The notes beneath the pieces were generated by a model. The model was given only the letters and a program-made list of their open reading frames with translations. It was not told where the DNA came from and did no database searches. This document shows, in pieces, positions 340 through 20,462 of a stretch of DNA of 32,000 nt. Position numbers and translations under genes: made by a program. Positions within the stretch are counted from its first letter, which is position 1, and each line of letters begins with the position of its first letter. Source of the stretch: an uncultured Chloroflexia bacterium. GTDB taxonomy: Bacteria; Chloroflexota; Ktedonobacteria; Ktedonobacterales; JADMIN01. The DNA is taken from assembly GCA_963718915.1 (NCBI GenBank), contig CAVRAI010000009.1, positions 270,001 to 302,000 of the forward strand. Direction: 5' to 3'.

Positions 340-1272
340 CTACCGAAGATATTGGGCGAAGAAGGCCAGCACTCGTTGTTGGTATTCGCCTGGATGAGCC
401 GCCAGCGCGCCCGCATGGCCACCACTCGGCGCGATCCACTGCTGCCTTGGCTGGCCAGCGGCCGTATAGAGCTGCGCCTCCCCCGTGAGCGGCGTGGTGG
501 TGTTTCGGTCGTCCGCTGAGTGGATGAGGAAAATGGCACGCGGCGCGATCTTGCCGATGACAGCGCGCGGACTGGTAGCTTCGAGCCGCGCGCCAATCAA
601 TGCGTCCACCAACGCTGGCTCGTAGGGCAGCACTGGCAGTGAAAAACGCCCAACGGGCACGCTGCTCATGCGGTCGAGTTGGGGGCGCTCATCGGCCCAG
701 GCGCTATCGGCCACCACCGCGACCAACGCAGGCTCGCGCGCCGCCGCCAGCAGGACAACGCCCGCCCCTAGCGAGACGCCCAAGGCGCCATAACGCTTGT
801 TCGTGAGGTCGCTACGGCTCTCCAGGTAGCGCACCGCGCCGATGACATCGTTTGGTTCGGTGGCTCCAAGACCAATGCCCCAGCCATCACTCTGGCCGCA
901 GCCACGGTCATCAAAGAGCAGCACGTTATAGCCTGCCGCGTAGAGAAAGCGCGCCCACGGCAGCATGCTTACCCGCGTCGCCTTGAAGCCATGTACCAGG
1001 ATGACCGTCGCCGCGTGTGGGTTAGCGATGGCCAGCCAGCCCCGCAGCCGCACGCCATCACTGGCGGTGAAGCTGACATCTTGCGTCGGGATGCCCGCCT
1101 GGGTGGCTATGGAGGCATTGGGCACACTCCGCGCACTGCCATTGTAGACCAGCGTAAACGCTCGCATCGCTGGCAGCAAGCCCCATGTGAGCAAGGCAAG
1201 CAGCGCTAGCGTTCCCGCAACGACGATAAGTCTGCGCCGCCTATGCGCGAGCAACTTCTCCATGCCAGCCAT
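340..1272 (-). CDS. alpha/beta hydrolase with N-terminal membrane anchor
   Basis: 310-aa ORF with an N-terminal TM helix (LIVVAGTLALLALLTWGLL), an HG oxyanion motif (ILVHGF) and a GxSxG nucleophile elbow (GVSLG). Confidence 0.85.
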   Translation of the reverse strand: MAGMEKLLAHRRRRLIVVAGTLALLALLTWGLLPAMRAFTLVYNGSARSVPNASIATQAGIPTQDVSFTASDGVRLRGWLAIANPHAATVILVHGFKATRVSMLPWARFLYAAGYNVLLFDDRGCGQSDGWGIGLGATEPNDVIGAVRYLESRSDLTNKRYGALGVSLGAGVVLLAAAREPALVAVVADSAWADERPQLDRMSSVPVGRFSLPVLPYEPALVDALIGARLEATSPRAVIGKIAPRAIFLIHSADDRNTTTPLTGEAQLYTAAGQPRQQWIAPSGGHAGALAAHPGEYQQRVLAFFAQYLR

Positions 1273-1490
1273 CCTTCCCGCAATCTCCTACACATTCGAC
1301 GACTCCATCTGAATGACGGATACTGGTGGCTTTTCTGTTGCCCTATTCATTTATTGATGCTGAATGAGTAGCGGATAATCTGCCAAATGTTCAGAAGATG
1401 TTGCGCTGCCGCTCACTACCTTCTATACTAGCATGGTATCGATTGCGGCCAGAGCGAAGTATAGTTGGGAGGATATCCCCTGTGGGACAA

Positions 1491-2288
1491 GGTAATGATA
1501 GCGGTACCTGGCAGACAATTGCCCGCGTAGGCATTGTTCTCGGAATCATCGCGGCAATAATTACTGTGCTTGCCTTTCTTCGGGAAGTTGGCGCCTCCAC
1601 AGCCGGAGCAGTGTCTGTGACGCCCACAACGAATCAGAATACCGTTAGCGGAAATAAGCAACCTGACTCAACGCCCAGTCCCATCATCGCGCCTACAGCG
1701 ATTCCTACAACCGGGCCCGCTGCCCCCGGAACGATCCTCTACTCGGCCAATTGGTCGTCAGGAATGAACGGTTGGACAGGCTCATCTCAGTGGGCGGTAG
1801 TAAATGGCATGCTGCTGGACAATGGGAGCGGTGGCGCAGGTGGTTTCAACGATGTAGCGACGTTTCCACCATATCAACCCAGTAGTCCTGACTATTCGGT
1901 CGAGGCGCGTATCAGATTAGTGGGCGATTCCGGAGTCACAGGAGAGTTCGGTTTATTCGCGCGTATGACTGATGATGGCCTGAGCGCCTATTCAGGCTGT
2001 GTTGATAACATATGGGCGCAAAAGCCATATTCGGGACAAGCAGAAATCCATACGGGCTATGCCGAACCGTATCCATCGGATATCTTGACCGCCCATGCGT
2101 TCACCCCAGCGTCTGACTGGCACATCTACCGTCTCACCGTGAAAGCCAATCATATCGTGCTTTATATAGATGGCAATTCTGTGCTTCAGACTGATAACAA
2201 CACGTATCTTTCAGCGGGTACGTTAGGCATAGAGGCCTGGAATGGACTCCAGGTCGAAGTGAGCAGCTTCCAGGTCATTGCTATGTGA
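1491..2288 (+). CDS. membrane-anchored LamG/DUF1080-like (concanavalin-like fold) protein
   Basis: GTG at 1491 is preceded by GGGAGGA 8 nt upstream. Codons between the tracked start (1398) and 1491 have low GC3, arguing against the longer form. It has a TM helix (IVLGIIAAIITVLAF), a Thr/Pro linker, then NWSSGMNGWTGSSQWAVVNGML...DYSVEARIRL. It is a paralogue of 20463-21216. Confidence 0.7.
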   Translation, partial: GNDSGTWQTIARVGIVLGIIAAIITVLAFLREVGASTAGAVSVTPTTNQNTVSGNKQPDSTPSPIIAPTAIPTTGPAAPGTILYSANWSSGMNGWTGSSQWAVVNGMLLDNGSGGAGGFNDVATFPPYQPSSPDYSVEARIRLVGDSGVTGEFGLFARMTDDGLSAYSGCVDNIWAQKPYSGQAEIHTGYAEPYPSDILTAHAFTPASDWHIYRLTVKANHIVLYIDGNSVLQTDNNTYLSAGTLGIEAWNGLQVEVSSFQVIAM

Positions 2289-2537: not shown

Positions 2538-4088
2538 ATGCTGGCGAAGGCGTGTAGTTGCGCGGTTATCGGGCTGGATGGCGCGCTGGTCGAGGTCGAG
2601 GTGGATATCGGACATGGGCTGCCCACCTTCAGCATCGTGGGCCTGCCGGATGCCGCCGTCACCGAGGCCAAGGAGCGTGTGCGCGCCGCCATCAAGAACA
2701 GCGGCGCGATCTTTCCCATGCGCCGCATCACCGTCAACCTGGCCCCCGCCGATCTACGCAAGGCTGGCCCCGCCTACGACCTGCCCATTGCCATCGCCAT
2801 CCTGATGGCCTCGGAACAGGCGCCATTCGCCAGCGCAGTGGGGGTGACAGGTGAGGCGGGTGAGGCATTGTTCCTGGGCGAATTAAGCCTGGATGGCAGC
2901 CTGCGCCACACGCGCGGGATTCTGCCGATGGTGGCGCTGGCGCGTGACCGCAGCATCCCCGCCGTCTACGTCCCGGCTGTCGACGCGGCGGAGGCGGCGC
3001 TGGTCGAGGATATCGCCGTCTACCCAGTCGAGCATCTGGCGCAACTGGTGGCGCACCTGCGCGGCGAGCAGCCAATCGCGCCGTATGTGCCCGACGGCTC
3101 GCCACTGGACTCCGGCGACGACACGATCTATCCCTACGATCTGGCCGACGTGCGCGGGCAGGAACACGTGAAGCGCGCGCTGGAGGTGGCGGCCAGTGGC
3201 GGGCACAATATGCTGATGGTCGGCCCTCCCGGCTCCGGCAAGACGCTGCTGGCGCGCACCGTCCCCTCGATTCTGCCGCCGCTCTCGCTCAACGAGGCGC
3301 TCGAAGTCACCCGGCTCTACAGCGTCAGCGGGATGCTTAGCGCCGATAGGCCGCTGATTACCAGCCGCCCCTTCCGCGCGCCGCATCACACCACCAGCCA
3401 CGCGGGCCTCGTCGGCGGCGGACGCTGGCCGCGTCCCGGCGAAATCAGCCTGGCGCATCGCGGCGTCCTCTTCCTGGACGAGCTGCCAGAGTTCGGCCAG
3501 AATGTGCTGGAGGTGCTGCGCCAGCCGCTCGAAGACCACATCGTCACCATCAGTCGCGCGCAGGGCACCGTCACCTTCCCCGCCAACTTCGTGCTGGTGG
3601 GGGCGATGAATCCCTGTCCCTGCGGCTACGCCACGGACCCGGTGCGCGAGTGTACCTGCTCGCCTTCCACCATCACCCGCTACCAGAAACGCCTCTCTGG
3701 CCCGCTGCTGGACCGCATCGATATCCACGTCGAGGTGCCGCGCGTCGAGTATGAGAAGCTGACCGGCAGGCAGGAGGGCGAGCGGTCAGCGGTGGTGCGG
3801 GCGCGGGTGAACGCGGCGCGAGCGGTGCAGGCGAAGCGGTTCGCGGGTACCGGCATCACCTGTAACGCCGAGATGGGGCCAGCCGAAGTACGCGCCCACT
3901 GCGAGGTGGACGCTGCGGCCCAGCCGATTCTGCGCGCCGCCACCCAGCGCCTCCAACTCTCCGCCCGTGCGTTCCACCGGGTGTTGAAGCTGGCCCGCAC
4001 GATTGCCGATCTGGCGGGCAGCGAGACGATCACCGCGCCGCATGTCGCCGAGGCGCTGCAATATCGCGCACGGGGCGACGTGGGGTGA
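2538..4088 (+). CDS. comM: YifB/ComM family Mg-chelatase-like AAA+ ATPase
   Basis: 516-aa ORF. The N-terminus has a Lon-protease-like domain (AVIGLDGALVEVEVDIGHGLPTFSIVGLPDAAVTEAKERV). It carries Walker A (GPPGSGKT), Walker B (VLFLDE) and the C-terminal ChlI-like region. Confidence 0.95.
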   Translation: MLAKACSCAVIGLDGALVEVEVDIGHGLPTFSIVGLPDAAVTEAKERVRAAIKNSGAIFPMRRITVNLAPADLRKAGPAYDLPIAIAILMASEQAPFASAVGVTGEAGEALFLGELSLDGSLRHTRGILPMVALARDRSIPAVYVPAVDAAEAALVEDIAVYPVEHLAQLVAHLRGEQPIAPYVPDGSPLDSGDDTIYPYDLADVRGQEHVKRALEVAASGGHNMLMVGPPGSGKTLLARTVPSILPPLSLNEALEVTRLYSVSGMLSADRPLITSRPFRAPHHTTSHAGLVGGGRWPRPGEISLAHRGVLFLDELPEFGQNVLEVLRQPLEDHIVTISRAQGTVTFPANFVLVGAMNPCPCGYATDPVRECTCSPSTITRYQKRLSGPLLDRIDIHVEVPRVEYEKLTGRQEGERSAVVRARVNAARAVQAKRFAGTGITCNAEMGPAEVRAHCEVDAAAQPILRAATQRLQLSARAFHRVLKLARTIADLAGSETITAPHVAEALQYRARGDVG

Positions 4089-4115
4089 GGCTCGAAGCGA
4101 AGTCTGTTACGATGC

Positions 4116-4337
4116 CTACTGAACCGCTCTTTTGGCGGTTTGGAGCAGCAACCGTAACGCTTCGTTCACTGCTTCCTCCGTGGGGAAGGCGGCAGCGACA
4201 TCCGGCGCCAGACGCACGACGTTGGAGCCATGCGCAAGGCGTTGTACATATTTGCCGCGAACGCCATCCTTGAGCGTCTTCTCGTCGTATTCCTCGCGCA
4301 GTTCGTCGTCGAGTTGTGCCTCAGCGTCCTGATTCAT
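4116..4337 (-). CDS. small antitoxin-like protein (CopG/BrnA-like C-terminal pattern), orphan
   Basis: 73-aa ORF. The pattern DDELREEYD..KDGVRGKY...VVRLAPDVAAAFPTEEAVNEALRLL resembles small type II antitoxins. No toxin partner is adjacent. A TATACT box sits 6 nt upstream of the ATG. Confidence 0.55.
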   Translation of the reverse strand: MNQDAEAQLDDELREEYDEKTLKDGVRGKYVQRLAHGSNVVRLAPDVAAAFPTEEAVNEALRLLLQTAKRAVQ

Positions 4338-4389
4338 GGGTTCAGTATATCATGCGATTTACAGGTTTCTCGCCCCGCTCTGATGCCAG

Positions 4390-4467
4390 TTGACCGGCCC
4401 TGACACCATCACCGCGCCGCATGTCGCCGAGGCGCTGCAATACCGGGCAAGGGGCGATGTGGGGTAG
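4390..4467 (+). pseudogene. displaced or duplicated 3'-terminal fragment of comM (26 codons plus stop)
   Basis: In-frame reading LTGPDTITAPHVAEALQYRARGDVG-stop matches LAGSETITAPHVAEALQYRARGDVG-stop at the real comM end. It is preceded by an in-frame TGA at 4381-4383. Confidence 0.6.
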
Positions 4468-4503
4468 ATCGCTCCCAGAAATCGGCGAGACGCTGACGCT
4501 GGA

Positions 4504-4686
4504 TTGGAAAAAACGCCAGCAAACCCGCGCGCCCAGGCGCGCCTCGCGGTGGAAGGTGCGCTGGACACTGGCCTGCTTGGCCTCTACTCTCTGGAGGAGT
4601 ACCAGCGCGCCTGCGACGCCGTCTACCAGCGCCTATTTGAGGTTTACGCTGACGCCAGCAACAATTGGTTTGTGGAAGCGAGCTGA
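4504..4686 (+). CDS. hypothetical small protein (60 aa, TTG start), doubtful
   Basis: High GC3 is consistent with coding. The RBS is weak, the start is non-ATG, no family is recognised, and the ORF lies in frame directly after the TAG of the displaced comM fragment. Confidence 0.25.
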   Translation: MEKTPANPRAQARLAVEGALDTGLLGLYSLEEYQRACDAVYQRLFEVYADASNNWFVEAS

Positions 4687-4709
4687 GATAGAAATGACGC
4701 CCTTCGAAG

Positions 4710-6005
4710 TCATGAAGTGCGGACAAAGCCGACGAAAGGAAACGTGTAAGCGTTTGTGGTGAGGACAGTCGCCCGACCATGTCCATCGCTCACGTTCGCG
4801 ACTGCGGTAATCTGGTACGGTCCGCCGTCTATCACGTAGATTTGTTCGCTTGTTAGGATCAGCGGCCCGCCTGCGGGAACCCATCCGGCGGCGTAGGCCT
4901 GATAGGGCAGTGGCTGGGCGAAGTCATGCGAGATGTCGAGCAGCCATGTCTTCAGGTCGCCATTGGCGCGTAATCCCGTCGATGCCGCGACGGTCATCGT
5001 GCCGTCCTGCCAGGCGATGCTCGTGAATCCCGAATAGGATCCCATCGCGTGGGCGATGTTCGGCAGCGGCGTGACCGTCCCCGTCGAGACATCAATCAGT
5101 CGCACATCTGGCACATAGGGATAGCTTCGAAAGAGACGATTGGAGTACAGCGCGAACTTCCCATCGGGCGACGAAACGAACTGGCTTTGCCCCATGGTGG
5201 ATGACGTGATACTGGCGACCTTGTGCACTACTCCAGACGTCACATCCTCGGTTGCCAGCGTCAGCGTCTGCGCCCCAGGCGGGGGATTCACATCCGAATG
5301 GGGTGGCGTAGCGGTTGCGGATGCGCCACCTGCCTGCGCGGGGTCGAAATAGCCAACAACATGCGTATCGTCGACCCACCCAATAATGTCCGAAAGAGTC
5401 CCTGCCGCAATTGCGGGGGTCTTCGTGAGGGACCCGTCCGATACGCGGATGAGATCGACACCTTGCCATGTCGCGCCAGCAACCGCAAGCATCGTGCTGT
5501 CAGGCGACCAGGCGATACTGCGGTAGCTCGCTTCAAGAGGAAAGGTGAACATGCGATGTTGTCCAGTCAGCTCCACGATATTAAGGCCGCTAGTGTTAGG
5601 AATTGCCACCAGGCGCCCGTTGGGTGAGACGCTCGGAGGCTGCAGGCTATAATTCGGCGAAATCCCCAGCAATTCAGGCCCAGCTACAGGCGTCGTCTCG
5701 GTGGGTGAGATAGCCATCAACTGGCCCGTGTCGCCCTGCCCACTAGGCCCATCCACATACGCGACGCGCCAGTCATCGAACAGAGGAAAGGCGGGGTACG
5801 CAACTGCCCCGGTCCCGCCGATCTTGGGCGTGGTAGTGGGCATCAGTGCTGAAGTTCGCGAGCCGACAGCCGACGATGCGGGATCACACGCGGTCATACC
5901 TATAGCGAGGCAAAGAACGAGAGTGGGAAGAATACTGTAGGCCTCGCGTCGCCGCGCGCGCAGTATTTCCCAAGAGCGCCATAGGCGTGTCCATGACCGT
6001 ACCAT
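4710..6005 (-). CDS. secreted or lipoprotein beta-propeller protein (TolB/PD40-like repeats)
   Basis: Signal/lipobox-like N-terminus (ILPTLVLCLAIGMTAC). Repeated WSPDG/SPNG-type motifs (VSPNGRLVAI, IAWSPDSTMLAV, SSPDGKFALYS). The start is ambiguous: ATG at 6005, ATG at 6029 or TTG at 6092. Confidence 0.75.
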   Translation of the reverse strand: MVRSWTRLWRSWEILRARRREAYSILPTLVLCLAIGMTACDPASSAVGSRTSALMPTTTPKIGGTGAVAYPAFPLFDDWRVAYVDGPSGQGDTGQLMAISPTETTPVAGPELLGISPNYSLQPPSVSPNGRLVAIPNTSGLNIVELTGQHRMFTFPLEASYRSIAWSPDSTMLAVAGATWQGVDLIRVSDGSLTKTPAIAAGTLSDIIGWVDDTHVVGYFDPAQAGGASATATPPHSDVNPPPGAQTLTLATEDVTSGVVHKVASITSSTMGQSQFVSSPDGKFALYSNRLFRSYPYVPDVRLIDVSTGTVTPLPNIAHAMGSYSGFTSIAWQDGTMTVAASTGLRANGDLKTWLLDISHDFAQPLPYQAYAAGWVPAGGPLILTSEQIYVIDGGPYQITAVANVSDGHGRATVLTTNAYTFPFVGFVRTS

Positions 6006-6113: not shown

Positions 6114-7114
6114 TTAGCTGTCCCGCAGCCCGAGCAGGCGCACGGCGTTCTCGGAGTAGACCGCGGCTATGTCTTCGCTGGCAAGACCGGTCGAATCGAT
6201 GTCCGCGACTGTTGCCTCAACCGCGTTGGCGGGGCCAAGCGGCATGTCGGAGCCGAAGAGCACGTGTTGCGGGCCGAAGAAGTCGAGGACGCAGCGGACC
6301 GCGTGTGGCGCGCCGAAGAGCGCCGTATCGACGTAGAACCGCCGGAAGTAGTCGAGCGGCGGCTGGGGCAGGGTGTCTTTGACCTGCCGATAGCCGGGAC
6401 CCATCGCGAGGCGGGCGGAGAAGTGCGGGACCATGCCGCCACCGTGATGCGCGATCACAAGCTGGCGCGGGTGACGCTCCATGTGTCCCGGAATAGACGA
6501 GACGCGCAAGGGCGGCGGCGGTCTCGTAGGGCCAGCCGATGGACCACCACAGGCCATAGTCGGACCTGCTCTCGGCTGGATAGTCGGCCCATGCCGCGCT
6601 CCGAGTCGGGTGCAGCCAGATAGCGCGGCCTGCCTCTTCGAGCCGGGTGAACAGTGATTCAAAGCGTGGATCGTCGAGCGCCACGCCCAGGACGTTCGTG
6701 TAGAACTGTGCGCCTAGCGCGCCAAGCTGCGTCAGGGCACGGTCGAGCTCAATCAAGGCCGCGTCGATGTCGCTCAGCGGCAGCGCCGCCGCGAAGCCGA
6801 CGAAGCGATCTGGAAACCGTCGCACCAGTTCCGCCATCTCGTCATTGGCGATGCGGGCAAACTCCGCCGCGACTTCCGGCGGCCCGACCTCTTCCAGCGG
6901 CGGCACGGCAAGCACCAGCACCTGGGCGTACTCGCCGTATGGCTCGATCTTCCGCCACCGCGCATCCAGGTCGGTCAGCACTCGGATCGAAGGAGAAGAC
7001 GCCCTCGCGGTAGTAGGTGAGCTGGCTCGGAGCCATGGTCTGCTCAAGCCGCCGCTCCAGCCGTTCGAGATACGCGCGAGGCAGGATGTGCGCGAACGCA
7101 TCGATCTTCCGCAT
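6114..7114 (-). pseudogene. amidohydrolase-2 (ACMSD-like metal-dependent hydrolase) family gene split over three frames
   Basis: The N-terminus MRKIDAFAHILP (frame 1) continues as LTDLDARWRKIEPYG...WLHP...WPYETAAALARLVYSG (frame 2). It then continues as HMERHPRQLVIAHHGGG...LFGSDMP (frame 3). The frame switches lie near 6988-6997 and 6484-6492, and both need a +1 correction. Confidence 0.75.
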
Positions 7115-10649: not shown

Positions 10650-11597
10650 ATGGCGGAGGTACGGACGTTTCGGTTTGGCGCCGGAGTCACCGGGGCAGGC
10701 TCACGCGCGGAGTGGATCGCGTTGGCGCGCCGAATCGAAGAGTTGGGGTATGCGGTTTTGCTGGTACCCGACCACTTTGACGAGGTATTTCTGCCCTCGG
10801 TGGCGCTGATGGCCGTGGCGGACGCCGCGCCACACCTGCGCATTGGGAGCTACGTCTATGATAATGACTTCCGCCATCCAGCGCTGCTGGCGAAGGAGGC
10901 CGCGACGCTCGACCTGCTCTCGGATGGCCGCCTGGAGCTTGGGATCGGGGCAGGCTGGAATCTTGCCGACTACGAGCAGACGGGACTGCCCTTCGAGAGC
11001 GCAGGGATACGGATCGAGCGTCTGGCCGAGGCCATCACGCTTGTGCGCCAGTTTTTCACGCAGGAGTCGGTGACGTTCGCGGGGAAATACTACCAGGTGA
11101 CAGCGTTACAAGGCATGCCAAAGCCAGCGCAGCGACCACATCCGCCGATTTTCATTGGAGGGGGCGGGAAGCGGGTGCTCACGCTGGCGGGCCAGGAGGC
11201 GGATATCGTCGGGCTGCACTTCAAGGTCAATGCGAACAACACGGTGGACGCTGAAGAGCGCCTGGAGACGGCGCTGGCTCGGAAGATTGCGTGGGTGCGG
11301 GAGGCGGCAGGTGAGCGATTCGCGGCGATTGAGCTGAACCTGCTGCTCAGCGGCGTGATTGTGACGGATGACCGGCAGCAGGCCGCGGAGGAGCGGGCGC
11401 GCGAGCTACAGGCTGGCGGCAGCACAGTGACCGCCGATGTCTTGCTGGAAAGCCCCTACTGGCTCATCGGCAGCGTGGATGAGATGGTAGAGCGGCTCGT
11501 GCGGCTGCGCGCGACACACGGCATCTCATATGTGGTGGCGCGTGAAGACGCGGTCGAGGCGTTCGCTCCGGTGGTGGCGCGCCTGACGGGAAAGTGA
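10650..11597 (+). CDS. LLM-class (luciferase-like) F420-dependent oxidoreductase
   Basis: 315-aa ORF. The N-terminus FRFG...LGYAVLLVPDHF, plus DLLSDGRLELGIGAGW and PPIFIGGGG, are typical of the luciferase-like monooxygenase fold. RBS GAGGAGG lies upstream. Confidence 0.85.
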   Translation: MAEVRTFRFGAGVTGAGSRAEWIALARRIEELGYAVLLVPDHFDEVFLPSVALMAVADAAPHLRIGSYVYDNDFRHPALLAKEAATLDLLSDGRLELGIGAGWNLADYEQTGLPFESAGIRIERLAEAITLVRQFFTQESVTFAGKYYQVTALQGMPKPAQRPHPPIFIGGGGKRVLTLAGQEADIVGLHFKVNANNTVDAEERLETALARKIAWVREAAGERFAAIELNLLLSGVIVTDDRQQAAEERARELQAGGSTVTADVLLESPYWLIGSVDEMVERLVRLRATHGISYVVAREDAVEAFAPVVARLTGK

Positions 11598-11620: not shown

Positions 11621-12556
11621 TCACGAGATGGGCGGGCAGACGTAGTAGGTGTCCTGGGTGGTCGCGGGGATTCGCGCCTGCATCGCCGGTGTTAGACACG
11701 CGATTCCCGTCCACACGATTGCCGATGGCGCCATGAGGAAAGCCCCATCACTCGGCGTCATCTGCCAGGGCGACGCGCCATCCACGCTCACCCCGAACTT
11801 GAGCGCGTAGGCGCCCTGGCTGGTCAGTCCATTCACGGCAACCACGATCGTGATCGCCTGGTTCGGGCCAATCGTAACAGGCCACGTCGTTCCTGTGACA
11901 GACGCCGAGGCGCCAGTGCTATCGCTGAGCAGCGTAGCCGTGAGCTGGGCGCCCGCGAACCCGCTGCTGCCGCAGCCCGGTGTCGTCTGTTTGGTCGCCG
12001 CATCGTAGGGGCCGCCCTGGCAGATGTGCCAGACGGTTACAGGGCCGCTGCTCGCGCTGAAGCTGGCGATGTTCACGCGCATGCTGGTGAGTGTATGCGA
12101 GGCGCTTGTCTTGTTACAGAACTGGAAGACATATCCACTTGCCAGCTCTGGATTGACGGGCGGGTTCGGGTGAAATGCGCCCACCCACAGAGCCTCGTTC
12201 GGGGTCAAAGAGACCTTGTAGGGCGCGTAGGGCGCGTTGTTGGGCATCAACGCGCTAATAGAAGAGTCGTCCAGTCGCTGGGGAATCGAAACGTCCAGGT
12301 CGCCCACGGCGACATACTTCGGCTGGGTAGGATTGGGGAGTGGTGGACATCCCGGCCACATGGTGATTATTTGATCGATGGGGGCCGTCGGTGCGGTAGG
12401 AAAAGGTGTATCTGTCGCCGCAGTCGTCGCGGTGCTCGCCGCCGCTTTCTGCCCGACTGTAGCGGTGGTCGAGGCGCCACAGCCGCTGAGGATCATGCCA
12501 AGTGTGAGCGCCGCCACGCACATCAAGCCGAGAGTCCTATACCGCACGTGTCGCAT
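11621..12556 (-). CDS. hypothetical lipoprotein
   Basis: 311-aa ORF with a lipobox signal (LTLGMILSGCGAS) and RBS AAGGAG upstream. No family recognised. Confidence 0.7.
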   Translation of the reverse strand: MRHVRYRTLGLMCVAALTLGMILSGCGASTTATVGQKAAASTATTAATDTPFPTAPTAPIDQIITMWPGCPPLPNPTQPKYVAVGDLDVSIPQRLDDSSISALMPNNAPYAPYKVSLTPNEALWVGAFHPNPPVNPELASGYVFQFCNKTSASHTLTSMRVNIASFSASSGPVTVWHICQGGPYDAATKQTTPGCGSSGFAGAQLTATLLSDSTGASASVTGTTWPVTIGPNQAITIVVAVNGLTSQGAYALKFGVSVDGASPWQMTPSDGAFLMAPSAIVWTGIACLTPAMQARIPATTQDTYYVCPPIS

Positions 12557-18007: not shown

Positions 18008-19198
18008 ATGCAACCAGCCATTCGGGATACGACATACGCCATAGCGCTTGAAGACACACTTCGCGCTGAGCGAGGACGCCTGGTACGGTGGTGCGCGTAT
18101 TTGAGCGGAAGCGCTGACGCGGCGGAAGACCTCGTACAGGAGACCTGCGCGGCTGCCTGGCGTAGCGCGCGACGACCAGATCATGTCGAGGAGTTACCCG
18201 CGTGGCTTGCGGGCATTGCGCGCAACATCTGTCTATCCTGGAGGCGGCGCCAGCAGCGCGAAACAGCCCATCACGCCAGGCTGTCCGCCAGTCAGGCGCA
18301 TGATGACCGGCAAGCCTCTATGGGTCGCCGCAACGAGGAGCCAGCCGATCCCTTTGATCCCGCGATTCTGCTCGAAAAGGATGAACTGGCGCGCCTGTTG
18401 GATCGCGCACTGGGCCTGCTGCCAGACGAGACCAGGAAAGCGCTTATCGTTAAATATATCGAGGACGTTCCCCTGGCAGAGGGCGCGGCGCGACTGGGTA
18501 TGAGCGAGAGCGCGCTTGCCGCTCGCCTCCATCGTGGGAAGGTGTCGCTCCGTCGTCTGCTCACCGCAGAGCTGCGCGCCGAAGCGACCCTGTATGGACT
18601 GGCGCCGCCGACAGACGATGGCTGGCGAGAGACACGCATCTGGTGTCCGGAGTGCGCGGCATATCATCTCACAGGCAAGTTGATACAGGACCGCGACACA
18701 TTTGCCCTGCGCTGTCCCCAATGTTTTGCGCGTCATCCCGTAGACTTCGCCAGTTGGTATGAACCGGGGCTATTCGCCGGATTATCGAGCCACCGCGCGG
18801 CGCTCACCCGGCTCGCTCACAGCGCCTACGACTTCTACCATCAGGCGCTGCGACACGGCAACGTATCCTGTAGACGATGTGGAGGACGCGCGCTGGTGAG
18901 CCGGGAAAACTCCGACGAGTTGGCGGAAGGCGCTCATGATCCAGTGTGCGTGCGGGTCCATTGCATTGAGTGTCGCGCAACAGCTATGACCACGCTCAGC
19001 GGACTGCTGCTCTGTCACACCCAGACCCAGCGATTCTGGCGCAGCCATCCACGGATGCTGGCGTTGCCCCACCGCAGCATCGAATACCACGGGCGTCCAG
19101 CTATCCTGACCACCTTTGTTAGCCGAGATGGCGTCGGGCGATTGGCGCTGATTTCAGACCAGCGCACACTTGAGACACTCGACACCACCTGCGCGTAA
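18008..19198 (+). CDS. ECF-type sigma-70 family factor with ~200-aa Cys-rich C-terminal extension
   Basis: Region 2 (DLVQETCAAAW, WLAGIARNICLSWRRR) and region 4 (LIVKYIEDVPLAEGAARLGMSESALAARLHRGKVSLRRLL). The extension carries four CxxC pairs (CPEC, CPQC, CRRC, CIEC). Confidence 0.85.
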   Translation: MQPAIRDTTYAIALEDTLRAERGRLVRWCAYLSGSADAAEDLVQETCAAAWRSARRPDHVEELPAWLAGIARNICLSWRRRQQRETAHHARLSASQAHDDRQASMGRRNEEPADPFDPAILLEKDELARLLDRALGLLPDETRKALIVKYIEDVPLAEGAARLGMSESALAARLHRGKVSLRRLLTAELRAEATLYGLAPPTDDGWRETRIWCPECAAYHLTGKLIQDRDTFALRCPQCFARHPVDFASWYEPGLFAGLSSHRAALTRLAHSAYDFYHQALRHGNVSCRRCGGRALVSRENSDELAEGAHDPVCVRVHCIECRATAMTTLSGLLLCHTQTQRFWRSHPRMLALPHRSIEYHGRPAILTTFVSRDGVGRLALISDQRTLETLDTTCA

Positions 19199-19277
19199 GT
19201 CCTTCGCAATTTGAGAGGCATATCGCATATAATAGGCTTATCTCATCCGTCGCTTGCCCGCAGAGGAGGCAGCCCCG

Positions 19278-19970
19278 ATGGCCAGTCCGGTGAAACCGCG
19301 CATCTTTCTCAGCCACAGCCACAAGGATAATCTCTTCTGCCGCCCGTTCGTCGCGCATCTCCGCGCCGCGCTGAACCTGAGCGACCCCGATGACATTTTC
19401 TACGACGAGGCCACGCTACACCTGGGCGATGCCTGGCTTGAGCGCATTCAACACGAGGTGCTCGCGCGTCCGGTCTTTCTCGTGATACTCACACCAAATT
19501 CGGTCGCCGCCGATTACGTGCGTACGGAGACCAATCTTGCGCTGCGCGAGACGATCAGCCATCGCGATGAGCGCTGGATCGTCTCGATACTGGCGGAGGA
19601 GTGCGAGCCGAACCAGCTTGCCCCGCTGCTCGGTAACTACCAGATGGCCAACTTCGCCCGGAAGCCCTACGATGTCGCCTTCGCCGAACTGGTTGCCTTT
19701 CTCACCAGCATAGGTGTTGGTAACGACGAGCGCACCCTTACGGACGACCTGAGGAGTTTGCGGGCGGACCGCGACAAATACTATAAGGAATCCCAGATTA
19801 ATTATGACATGTACGTCAAAATGAAAGTAGACCGAGACAAATTTCATCAAGAACTGGATCGACTGCATGCCGTGCAGCAAAAAACGGTGAGCCGTGACAA
19901 ATACGAAGACCTGATGCGGCGGTATGAGCAAATGCAACAGGAAGTCGAGCAACTTCGCAAAATGCCATGA
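19278..19970 (+). CDS. TIR-domain protein with C-terminal coiled-coil repeat tail
   Basis: The ATG at 19278 has GAGGAGG 7 nt upstream. TIR_2-like pattern: IFLSHSHKD...GDAWLERIQHEV...FLVILTPNSVAADYVRTETNLAL. The tail has three (D/S)RDK(Y/F) repeats and heptad-like charged sequence. A TATAAT box lies at 19228-19233. Confidence 0.8.
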   Translation: MASPVKPRIFLSHSHKDNLFCRPFVAHLRAALNLSDPDDIFYDEATLHLGDAWLERIQHEVLARPVFLVILTPNSVAADYVRTETNLALRETISHRDERWIVSILAEECEPNQLAPLLGNYQMANFARKPYDVAFAELVAFLTSIGVGNDERTLTDDLRSLRADRDKYYKESQINYDMYVKMKVDRDKFHQELDRLHAVQQKTVSRDKYEDLMRRYEQMQQEVEQLRKMP

Positions 19971-20062: not shown

Positions 20063-20344
20063 CTAATGGCCTGTGGCCGGGGGGCGCTTGCCACGCAGCA
20101 GCGCGATAAGCCCCCACAGCGAGACGAGCGCCCAGACGCCCTCCAGTAGCACGAATCCCCATTCGCGTTGCGCGTCGCAAAACGCCAGGACACAGAGGAT
20201 GGCTGAGCCAGCCACATTCGGGAGCAGATACGGCCAGGAATGCTGGCCAAGCAGGCGGAACTGCGCCAGGGCAAAAGGCGCGAGGATGAGCAACGCGCCG
20301 AAGATTTGCACAATACTACTGATCGTCATTGGGTAGGACTCCAT
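20063..20344 (-). CDS. small integral membrane protein (about 3 TM helices)
   Basis: 93-aa ORF with hydrophobic segments IVQIFGALLILAPFALA, LLPNVAGSAILCVLAF and GVWALVSLWGLIALL. No family assigned with confidence. Confidence 0.6.
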   Translation of the reverse strand: MESYPMTISSIVQIFGALLILAPFALAQFRLLGQHSWPYLLPNVAGSAILCVLAFCDAQREWGFVLLEGVWALVSLWGLIALLRGKRPPATGH

Positions 20345-20462
20345 GCGTCGTCTTTGCGGACCGGGTACGGCGCATCTCGTCCGGAGAAAGCCCAGGGCGG
20401 GCTTATTGATACAGTATATCGCGCCGCCACGCTCTTCGTCCGCTTGTCTCGTGCGATAGGCG

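Follow-up and report, generated by a model that had tools for sequence, protein, structure and literature searches.

Two groups of described elements lie close to the locus considered here. Integrase-less elements flanked by attachment (att) sites, such as the cis-mobilizable elements (CIMEs) of Streptococcus and the cargo-only satellites found in arrays such as tycheposon islands, are defined by a cognate element that bears an integrase and occupies the same site. The gene comM is the target of AbaR islands, which are Tn7-like transposons that interrupt comM internally, produce a short target duplication, and leave the gene inactivated. In a 32,000-nt stretch of DNA from an uncultured Chloroflexia bacterium of the order Ktedonobacterales (contig CAVRAI010000009.1, positions 270,001 to 302,000; hereafter the window), the 3′ end of comM is present twice, and the only gene between the two copies (within 4089–4407) encodes a 73-residue antitoxin of the BrnT-associated kind, designated brnA. 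The reading we favor, which we judge to have about an even chance of being correct, is that the comM 3′ end long ago received an additive (Campbell-type, single-crossover) integration, of which this repeat is the scar, and that this integration was more likely driven by homology than made by a dedicated integrase.

The locus resembles CIMEs and satellites in having att-like repeats around cargo that lacks a recombinase and, in relatives, arrays of variable order, but the cognate integrase-bearing element that those elements have was not seen here. With the AbaR islands of Acinetobacter it shares the target gene, but comM in the window is intact at 516 aa and the interval contains no transposase; the parallel with AbaR drawn in an initial annotation of the window, which was made from the sequence alone, does not hold. 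Islands and prophages that carry a surrogate gene end, including the dusA-specific islands (PMC4482086) and Salmonella genomic island 1 (SGI1) at the 3′ end of trmE (PMC8409611, PMC2297512), are alike in that the target gene is kept intact by a replacement end, the displaced end stays behind as a direct repeat, and tandem arrays form at one site. These islands have their own integrase and a fixed att core, whereas the present locus yielded no integrase, its unit measures 0.4–0.65 kb, and the limits of its repeat are variable.

Two further precedents involve no dedicated recombinase. Among E. coli events that had been selected as one-sided recombination, the majority were single crossovers in which circularised DNA duplicated 109–950 bp of the lacZ end (PMC3240628). 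These events share with the present locus a partial gene-end duplication of variable length around an insert, although they were obtained with plasmid constructs, whereas the duplications described here are natural and span 22–100 nt (up to 470 nt in relatives). The islets described for Photorhabdus, like the present locus, occupy tiny spots beside core genes, hold toxin-antitoxin genes only, lack mobile-element genes, and later lose the toxin by erosion (PMC13617665). The accessible text of that report proposes spread by double homologous recombination at the core genes on either side, which leaves no duplication, and a term search of this text did not find “direct repeat”; the duplicated gene end seen here argues for additive insertion by a single crossover. 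The locus bears on how chromosomal toxin-antitoxin modules reach very small islets that lack mobile-element genes.

The final 60 nt of comM (4029–4088) occur a second time at 4408–4467. A repeat search recovers them within a two-copy direct repeat of 75 nt (4012–4086 and 4391–4465; 85% identity, spacing 379), and the 35-mer at 4029–4063 has an exact second match at 4408–4442 and no third site in the window. Two matches to this 35-mer occurred in 0 of 100 shuffles of the window. Either 60-nt copy translates to ITAPHVAEALQYRARGDVG*, and the six bases that differ between the copies (T/C, C/G, C/A, C/T, and TGA/TAG) are all silent if the stop-to-stop change is counted. When six random substitutions were drawn in 200,000 randomisations, the translation remained unchanged with P = 2e-4. 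This silent-only divergence indicates that both copies evolved as working comM ends. The initial annotation had proposed as much for the repeat, and had taken copy 2 to be a displaced, once-functional comM end; both proposals stood, copy 2 having in addition its own stop codon and a downstream type that relatives also have behind one of their comM pieces.

The gene body that precedes copy 1 encodes a YifB/ComM Mg-chelatase-like AAA+ ATPase (Pfam ChlI, Mg_chelatase, and Mg_chelatase_C; TIGR00368, 1.6e-183), for whose exact protein sequence no record was found. Because functional comM ends of other lineages share the 35-nt stretch (it is identical in related locus L170 and has two differences in L179; loci are referred to by such numbers), the identity of this stretch would not by itself be proof of a crossover. 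Similarity upstream of copy 2, which had also been noted as a weaker in-frame extension, is marginal. A BLAST match begins at 4402, and 10 of 17 nt match at 4391–4407. An in-frame TGA lies at 4381, and a further 48 nt of the spacer upstream of copy 2, when evaluated as decayed comM, were no closer to comM than shuffled sequence is; in that test, the highest-scoring chance match fell within the amidohydrolase gene.

The DNA that follows the two copies is of two types. Copy 1 and its downstream sequence, here called alpha, lead into brnA in all loci. Copy 2 is of a second type, beta, being 92% identical over 4402–4477 to the comM piece that precedes a kinase gene in L001–L003 and 89% identical over 4402–4481 to the comM piece before the kinase gene in L167. 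Since copy 1 is alpha-type and copy 2 is beta-type, the copies come from two different comM-downstream haplotypes, which the window joins as an alpha unit followed by a beta end. The opposite order, a beta unit before an alpha end, is present in L001 and L167. The DNA between the copies behaves, as proposed earlier, like inserted DNA that brought a surrogate end for comM with it.

The function of the 73-aa protein was read from gene context because family searches gave no match: neither the protein nor a 24-sequence profile matched an entry in Pfam or PDB, and the protein had no match in NCBIfam or PADLOC. It has more than 2000 homologs, nearly all of 76 aa, the closest of which belong to Ktedonobacterales metagenome-assembled genomes (MAGs), and a C-terminal motif (V-x-L-x-P-D-V-x-x-x-F-P-T-E-E-A-V-N-x-A-L-R) is conserved. 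In L006, a 91-aa open reading frame (ORF) that overlaps the antitoxin start is a BrnT toxin (PF04365, 1.7e-29). A BrnT_toxin gene is located directly upstream of the antitoxin gene in L168, L169, L171, and L173–L176, and a BrnT-like ORF holds this position in ∼62 of 80 metagenome loci. These BrnT genes in relatives indicate that the 73-aa ORF is the antitoxin of a BrnT-type pair and belongs to an unnamed antitoxin family; a BrnT partner in more than 60 related loci agrees with the antitoxin assignment made earlier. As in BrnT/BrnA type II systems, the PF04365 toxin gene of the relatives comes first and overlaps the small antitoxin gene, but the antitoxin described here is outside the existing Pfam, NCBIfam, and PDB entries, and in the window the toxin gene is gone. 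With respect to a ribbon-helix-helix DNA-binding fold, an AlphaFold2 monomer of the antitoxin is all-helical at a low pLDDT (predicted local distance difference test) of 66.5.

Loss of brnT from the window was precise. The 19 nt before the antitoxin ATG (4338–4356, minus strand) are CGCATGATATACTGAACCC. In L176 and L177, this leader stands before the ATG of brnT (ATGGATTTCGAC...), whereas in the window it runs directly into ATGAATCAGGAC.... This shared leader, located before the brnT ATG in the relatives and before the brnA ATG here, indicates that brnT was deleted exactly from its own ATG to the brnA ATG, and that the antitoxin was thereby fused to the operon promoter. The putative promoter is an extended −10 element, TGATATACT (4344–4352), 6 nt before the antitoxin ATG, from which a leaderless or near-leaderless mRNA would be made. 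The same TGnTATACT is located 6–7 nt from an ATG in L170, L176, L006, and L088, and the promoter call rests on this conservation directly before the ATG in five lineages; a generic scan of 3950–4750 for sigma-70 (−35/−10) promoters and terminators returned nothing. The window antitoxin is also 3 residues shorter than its 76-aa relatives, as comparison of the C termini reveals a CAG-to-TAG change.

In L001 (5976–6001) and L005 (1635–1656), brnA is located 20 nt past the amidohydrolase stop codon and has a Shine–Dalgarno-like sequence, and brnT has been lost. This different route of loss suggests that the toxin disappeared independently at least twice. With regard to the initial view of the interval as a decayed island or a minimal cassette, the unit is not antitoxin-only by design; it derives from a brnT-brnA pair whose brnT was later deleted.

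Three groups of Ktedonobacterales, each ∼85–88% identical to the window in DNA sequence, share a layout that consists of a comM end, brnA, (brnT), the promoter, a spacer, and a second comM end. In L168–L175, comM, convergent brnA and brnT, the promoter, and a 52-nt spacer are followed by ATCACCGCGCCAA joined to GGGCGACGTGGGGTGA. The remnant in these loci, ATCACCGCGCC..GGGCGACGTGGGGTGA, is a comM end from whose middle ∼33 nt have been deleted, and their spacer is about equal in length to that of the window, has the same end points, and is similar in part. L176 and L177 have no such spacer: the promoter runs directly into the second comM end, and the two meet at a microhomology of 8 of 9 nt (ATCATGCG versus ATCACCGCG). 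Beyond this end lie a spacer of the alpha type and then the final 55 nt of another brnA. Divergence between the two units in L176 is 17%, on a par with that between different lineages.

Every relative with enough sequence (L168–L177) carries a second comM end or its remnant behind the module, and no empty site was found, as comM without an adjacent brnA occurs in none of the ∼20 related loci. With these two observations taken together, the layout is old and inherited and does not represent a recent mobile insertion in this genome. An empty-site haplotype is predicted to have comM ending in ...CGGGCAAGGGGCGATGTGGGGTAG followed directly by ATCGCTCCCAG.... The initial annotation had suggested that related loci be inspected for empty sites and for larger islands bearing an integrase, and among the ∼20 loci neither was encountered; the second comM end is common to all adequate relatives, in three groups that are ∼15% diverged, and half of the outcome that the annotation had named as refuting its reading is thereby realised. 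The flanks of the two copies in the window differ, being beta in one case and alpha in the other.

In the more distant L185, whose antitoxin is 79% identical, comM and brnTA are still neighbors. In this region of L185 (9231–10059), a vapBC-like pair, recognized by sequence inspection, is located between comM and brnA, and an IS630-type element truncates brnT. Toxin-antitoxin genes seem to build up downstream of comM in this clade. A scan of genome contigs with ComM, which doubled as a 78-locus survey and control, returned a Ktedonobacteraceae MAG with 72% identity (L007) as the sole near relative, and this genome lacks brnTA. The scan of metagenome contigs with the antitoxin yielded mostly distant relatives and exposed the pattern of flanking repeats described below.

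The comM 3′ end is a recurrent insertion point in this lineage, consistent with the earlier suggestion that comM is an island target. Relatives carry up to three comM-end copies that part different cargo (a kinase gene, a set with a PP2C gene, or unknown ORFs). In L001–L003, an IS630-like remnant adjoins a 470-nt piece of comM whose 5′ limit is window-equivalent 3615; next come, in order, beta sequence, the Ser/Thr kinase gene, another comM piece of 95 nt, alpha sequence, brnA, and the amidohydrolase gene. Three copies are present in L167, namely the working end followed by three genes that include a PP2C phosphatase gene, a deleted beta piece with the kinase gene, and a third piece with brnA. 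L005 has two comM-end copies around three unknown ORFs. In L091, the order is an unrelated gene cluster, a comM piece whose first bases are ATCACC, and brnA. In L167 and in L176/L177, the decay of units increases with their distance from the comM body (copy 3 of L167 has lost its stop codon, copy 2 of L167 has an internal deletion, and L176 retains a brnA remnant), as would be predicted if new units were added beside the body of the gene.

Displaced comM pieces do not share one 5′ limit (window-equivalent 3615, 3987, 4005, ∼4012–4029, and 4037), and the displaced copies in the window, the L170 group, L091, L176, L025, and L066 begin ∼0–17 nt from the same Ile codon. L001 (8822–9467), L177 (1516–1640), and L167 (2776–2838) have in common a junction, at window-equivalent ∼3615, where an IS630-like (DDE_3) remnant meets comM. 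This shared junction suggests that an insertion sequence once interrupted one comM copy and that the piece was then inherited or moved.

The anatomy of the locus, its homologies, the signature of selection on the copies, the deletion of the toxin gene, and the old structure shared with relatives can be read directly from the loci compared. Every unit opens with a comM end that reaches the stop codon and is followed by unit-specific DNA, which is the topology of additive single-crossover integration of a circle that carries a comM end. A circular DNA of ∼0.65 kb would have contained the extended −10 promoter, brnT, brnA, and, past the brnA stop codon, the last 60–80 nt of a diverged comM. The crossover of this circle with the resident comM end would have fallen inside the conserved 35-nt stretch or close to it. 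As a result, the working end of comM would now be the incoming one (copy 1, TGA, alpha-type), and the resident end (copy 2, TAG, beta-type) would have been displaced behind the module promoter to become a pseudo-end. We infer both the circular intermediate and a crossover made by general homologous recombination on ∼60 nt, as opposed to a site-specific recombinase. Later deletion of brnT from ATG to ATG would have left an orphan antitoxin on the operon promoter, with a nonsense change that trimmed three C-terminal residues, and further indels may have replaced the DNA past copy 2 with the 60-codon ORF and the beta-propeller gene. Repeated rounds with different donor haplotypes could have given rise to the comM-end arrays of relatives.

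Several points weigh against this reading. Neither an empty site nor a circular form was seen, such that integration is reconstructed from its scar alone. The homology involved, ∼60 nt of which 35 consecutive nt are identical, is close to the minimum for RecA-dependent recombination. The clustering of starts near one Ile codon could reflect a preferred breakpoint and hence a site-specific enzyme, although it could be explained equally well if the conserved motif starts there and short repeats survive better than long ones. As the search of the source genome covered 32 kb, an integrase that acts in trans is possible. The model also leaves unexplained how the module first acquired the end of a neighboring gene.

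Site-specific integration, the model of the initial annotation, is a possibility that we take seriously but consider doubtful. In this case, the units would be integrase-less, att-flanked cassettes (CIME-like or satellite-like) or eroded islands, moved by a tyrosine or serine recombinase encoded elsewhere, with attB in the comM 3′ end and a surrogate end on each element. Such a process would produce direct repeats of the target gene end with silent-only differences, and the tandem arrays, in which varied cargo parted by comM ends stands in variable order, look like accretion at an att site. The repeat of every unit ends at the comM stop codon, and several displaced copies start near the same Ile codon, including those of unrelated phyla (L025 and L066). 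Addictive toxin-antitoxin modules would also be predicted to outlast the rest of an eroding island (PMC13617665).

However, no recombinase domain is present in the 26 larger ORFs of the window, as the initial annotation had stated for the interval, and no recombinase was found among the called genes of the ∼20 related loci or among their cargo ORFs, which were scanned separately against Pfam. No cognate integrase-bearing element at comM was found in L001–L005, L167–L179, L185, or the 78 comM loci of other taxa. The core 23-mer had no match in IMG/VR, the antitoxin profile was absent from viral contigs, and a plasmid collection returned one match, on a cyanobacterial megaplasmid. Moreover, the left limits of displaced pieces span more than 400 nt, and the same module is flanked elsewhere by duplicated ends of quite different genes that share no motif; inspection of these different flanking repeats for a shared att motif, and for dif-like or integron attC-like features, revealed nothing convincing. 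The variable 5′ limits and the flanking of the same module by the ends of other genes would be a better fit to homology-driven insertion than to a single attP and a dedicated integrase. The footprint of an integrative element that had been claimed at the outset is present insofar as there is a surrogate end and a displaced end, but the 5′ limits are variable, with several clustered near one Ile codon. Membership in this class is not supported, because an integrase and an empty site were both sought, in the window and the ∼20 related loci, and not found, although the unit possibly functions like such an element.

A purely local origin, in which the DNA from the comM core to the brnTA promoter was duplicated in place as a tandem through unequal crossing-over at microhomology and the second unit then decayed with no horizontal input, strikes us as improbable. 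The second comM end of L176/L177, with its microhomology junction and its downstream remnant of a second brnA, is what this origin would leave. In the window, however, copy 2 has the other stop codon, and its downstream DNA is of the beta type shared with the kinase unit of L001/L167 instead of alpha sequence and brnA. The all-silent differences require that the copies evolved separately as working ends, in conflict with the decay of a duplicate, and even in L176 the units differ to the extent seen between lineages. Local duplication is thus disfavored for the window. Collapse or chimerism of comM-end strain variants during metagenome assembly deserves hardly any credence. In its favor, the source is a metagenome-assembled contig and two 1-nt insertions in the neighboring amidohydrolase gene may be sequencing errors, but the same architecture recurs in independent assemblies from other samples and assemblers (L168–L175, L176–L179, L001–L005, and L167).

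Duplicated gene ends also flank modules of this family elsewhere. In unrelated lineages, with no comM nearby, brnT-brnA pairs of the same antitoxin family are bracketed by 22–93-nt direct repeats of the end of a neighboring gene. Five independent bracketed cases were found in ∼58 loci, compared with 2 among 608 randomly chosen positions that had the same geometry. In all five, the working gene copy is located 0–28 nt from the brnA stop codon, and the pseudo-copy is 50–285 nt upstream of the promoter. One could speculate, though we hold it to be unlikely, that the brnTA family is a minimal mobile cassette of 0.65–0.95 kb (promoter, brnT, brnA, and a short end of a neighboring gene) that spreads without its own recombinase by looping out between the flanking repeats and re-entering the homologous gene end of a new genome. 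If this were true, the borrowed gene end would serve as the portable attachment site of the brnTA cassette, and toxin-antitoxin modules would have a general, so far undescribed route to settle beside core genes without disrupting them.

Among the 78 comM loci of other taxa, 3 have a second comM end 1.5–2.1 kb downstream, with small cargo that lacks recombinases. Other long genes in the same loci have a 3′-end repeat in 4 of ∼330 cases. Thus, comM is not clearly special, and the numbers are too small for a claim of enrichment. The displaced end of L010, several hundred nucleotides of comM, is located inside a 132-codon ORF (10762–11160), and a hicA-hicB pair follows it.

The event at comM is largely of a known kind, and what is added here is a gene-end duplication as the footprint of additive insertion. 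The locus and its relatives preserve this footprint in readable form, as a module held between separately evolved working ends of its neighbor gene, which argues for an additive single crossover with a surrogate end and against simple allelic replacement or the wreck of a large island. They also document the later life cycle of such a module, including precise deletion of the toxin gene, an antitoxin left on the operon promoter, and the addition of further units at the same gene end. The most interesting lead is that a toxin-antitoxin family is found repeatedly between duplicated ends of neighbor genes in unrelated bacteria. If this pattern holds in a systematic survey, duplicated gene ends could be a simple genome-wide marker for such insertions.

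Table 1. Features of the comM-brnA region of the window and gene-end duplications in other loci. Coordinates without an L number refer to the window.
Feature	Coordinates	Strand	Remarks
comM, YifB/ComM-type AAA+ ATPase, intact, 516 aa	2538..4088	+	Pfam, TIGR00368
Copy 1, functional comM 3′ end (core 4029–4063), TGA stop, alpha-type downstream leading to brnA	4012..4088	+	Contiguous with brnA also in L170–L179
BrnT-associated antitoxin (brnA-like), 73 aa, orphan	4116..4337	-	Homologs and BrnT gene context
Leader and promoter of the toxin-antitoxin operon (putative)	4338..4356	-	Same 19–25 nt before the brnT ATG in L176/L177
Spacer from promoter to copy 2	4357..4407	.	Counterpart of similar length and partial similarity in L168–L175; absent from L176/L177; last 17 nt weakly comM-like
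Copy 2, displaced comM 3′ end, no comM body upstream, TAG stop, beta-type	4408..4467	+	Repeat search; similarity to L001–L003 and L167
Beta-type remnant, as after the comM piece in L001/L167	4468..4500	+	Homology fades past ∼14–30 nt; kinase gene absent here
ORF of 60 codons, same frame as copy 2	4504..4686	+	Coding status uncertain
Beta-propeller protein gene, called product 431 aa	4710..6092	-	Lineage-specific insert between module and amidohydrolase gene
Amidohydro_2 gene	6114..7114	-	Conserved neighbor; abuts brnA in L001, L005, and L167
Bracketed module, thiD-like start, repeat 32–41 nt	L105 6425–7260; L108 1126–1744 (L108/L111)		
Bracketed module, epimerase-like start, repeat 93 nt	L110 ∼930–1720		∼80% identical; many synonymous differences including TCC/AGT Ser
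Bracketed module, repeat 30–38 nt from ATG of next gene	L116 6422–7276		
Bracketed module, AT-rich repeat, 22–28 nt	L123 1513–2291		
comM-end duplication	L010 9518 / 11047–11141		Cargo: 430-aa membrane protein
comM-end duplication	L025 8722 / 10830–10873		Anaerolineaceae MAG; cargo: SDR and DUF6512 protein
comM-end duplication	L066 9542 / 11625–11692		AT-rich bacterium; cargo: two unknown proteins

Among the neighbors of the module in the window, the 60-codon ORF has no homolog and no match in Pfam, NCBIfam, or PADLOC. Homologs of the beta-propeller protein are similar within the coding sequence only and have unrelated contexts, and among these contexts no comM ending in copy 2 followed by the 60-codon ORF and the propeller gene was found. 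The Amidohydro_2 gene is spread over three frames by two 1-nt insertions relative to its intact L001 ortholog, and is either a pseudogene or affected by sequencing errors.

A second direct repeat is located at the other end of comM. The repeat search identified 207–295 and 2436–2524 as copies of 89 nt with 90% identity (78 nt in the best local alignment), and they resemble a comM promoter and 5′ untranslated region (TTGCCA, 18 nt, GATAAT, and ∼45 nt). The 2436–2524 copy is directly before the comM ATG, and the 207–295 copy is past the stop codon of an S15-type hydrolase gene. The pair thus brackets the hydrolase gene and a gene for a 296-aa protein (1398–2288), the latter of which is absent from this position in L170. 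The repeat is present as a single copy in L005 and had no Rfam match at the gathering score.

Elsewhere in the window, the sole Rfam match is a Guanidine-III riboswitch at 20342–20408 on the minus strand (RF01763, 54.9 bits, E 6.4e-09). An ORF at 19254–19970 on the plus strand, which adjoins the gene for a sigma-70/DUF7351 protein (18008–19198), has a TIR_2 domain (2e-14) and could be a defense or signaling gene.

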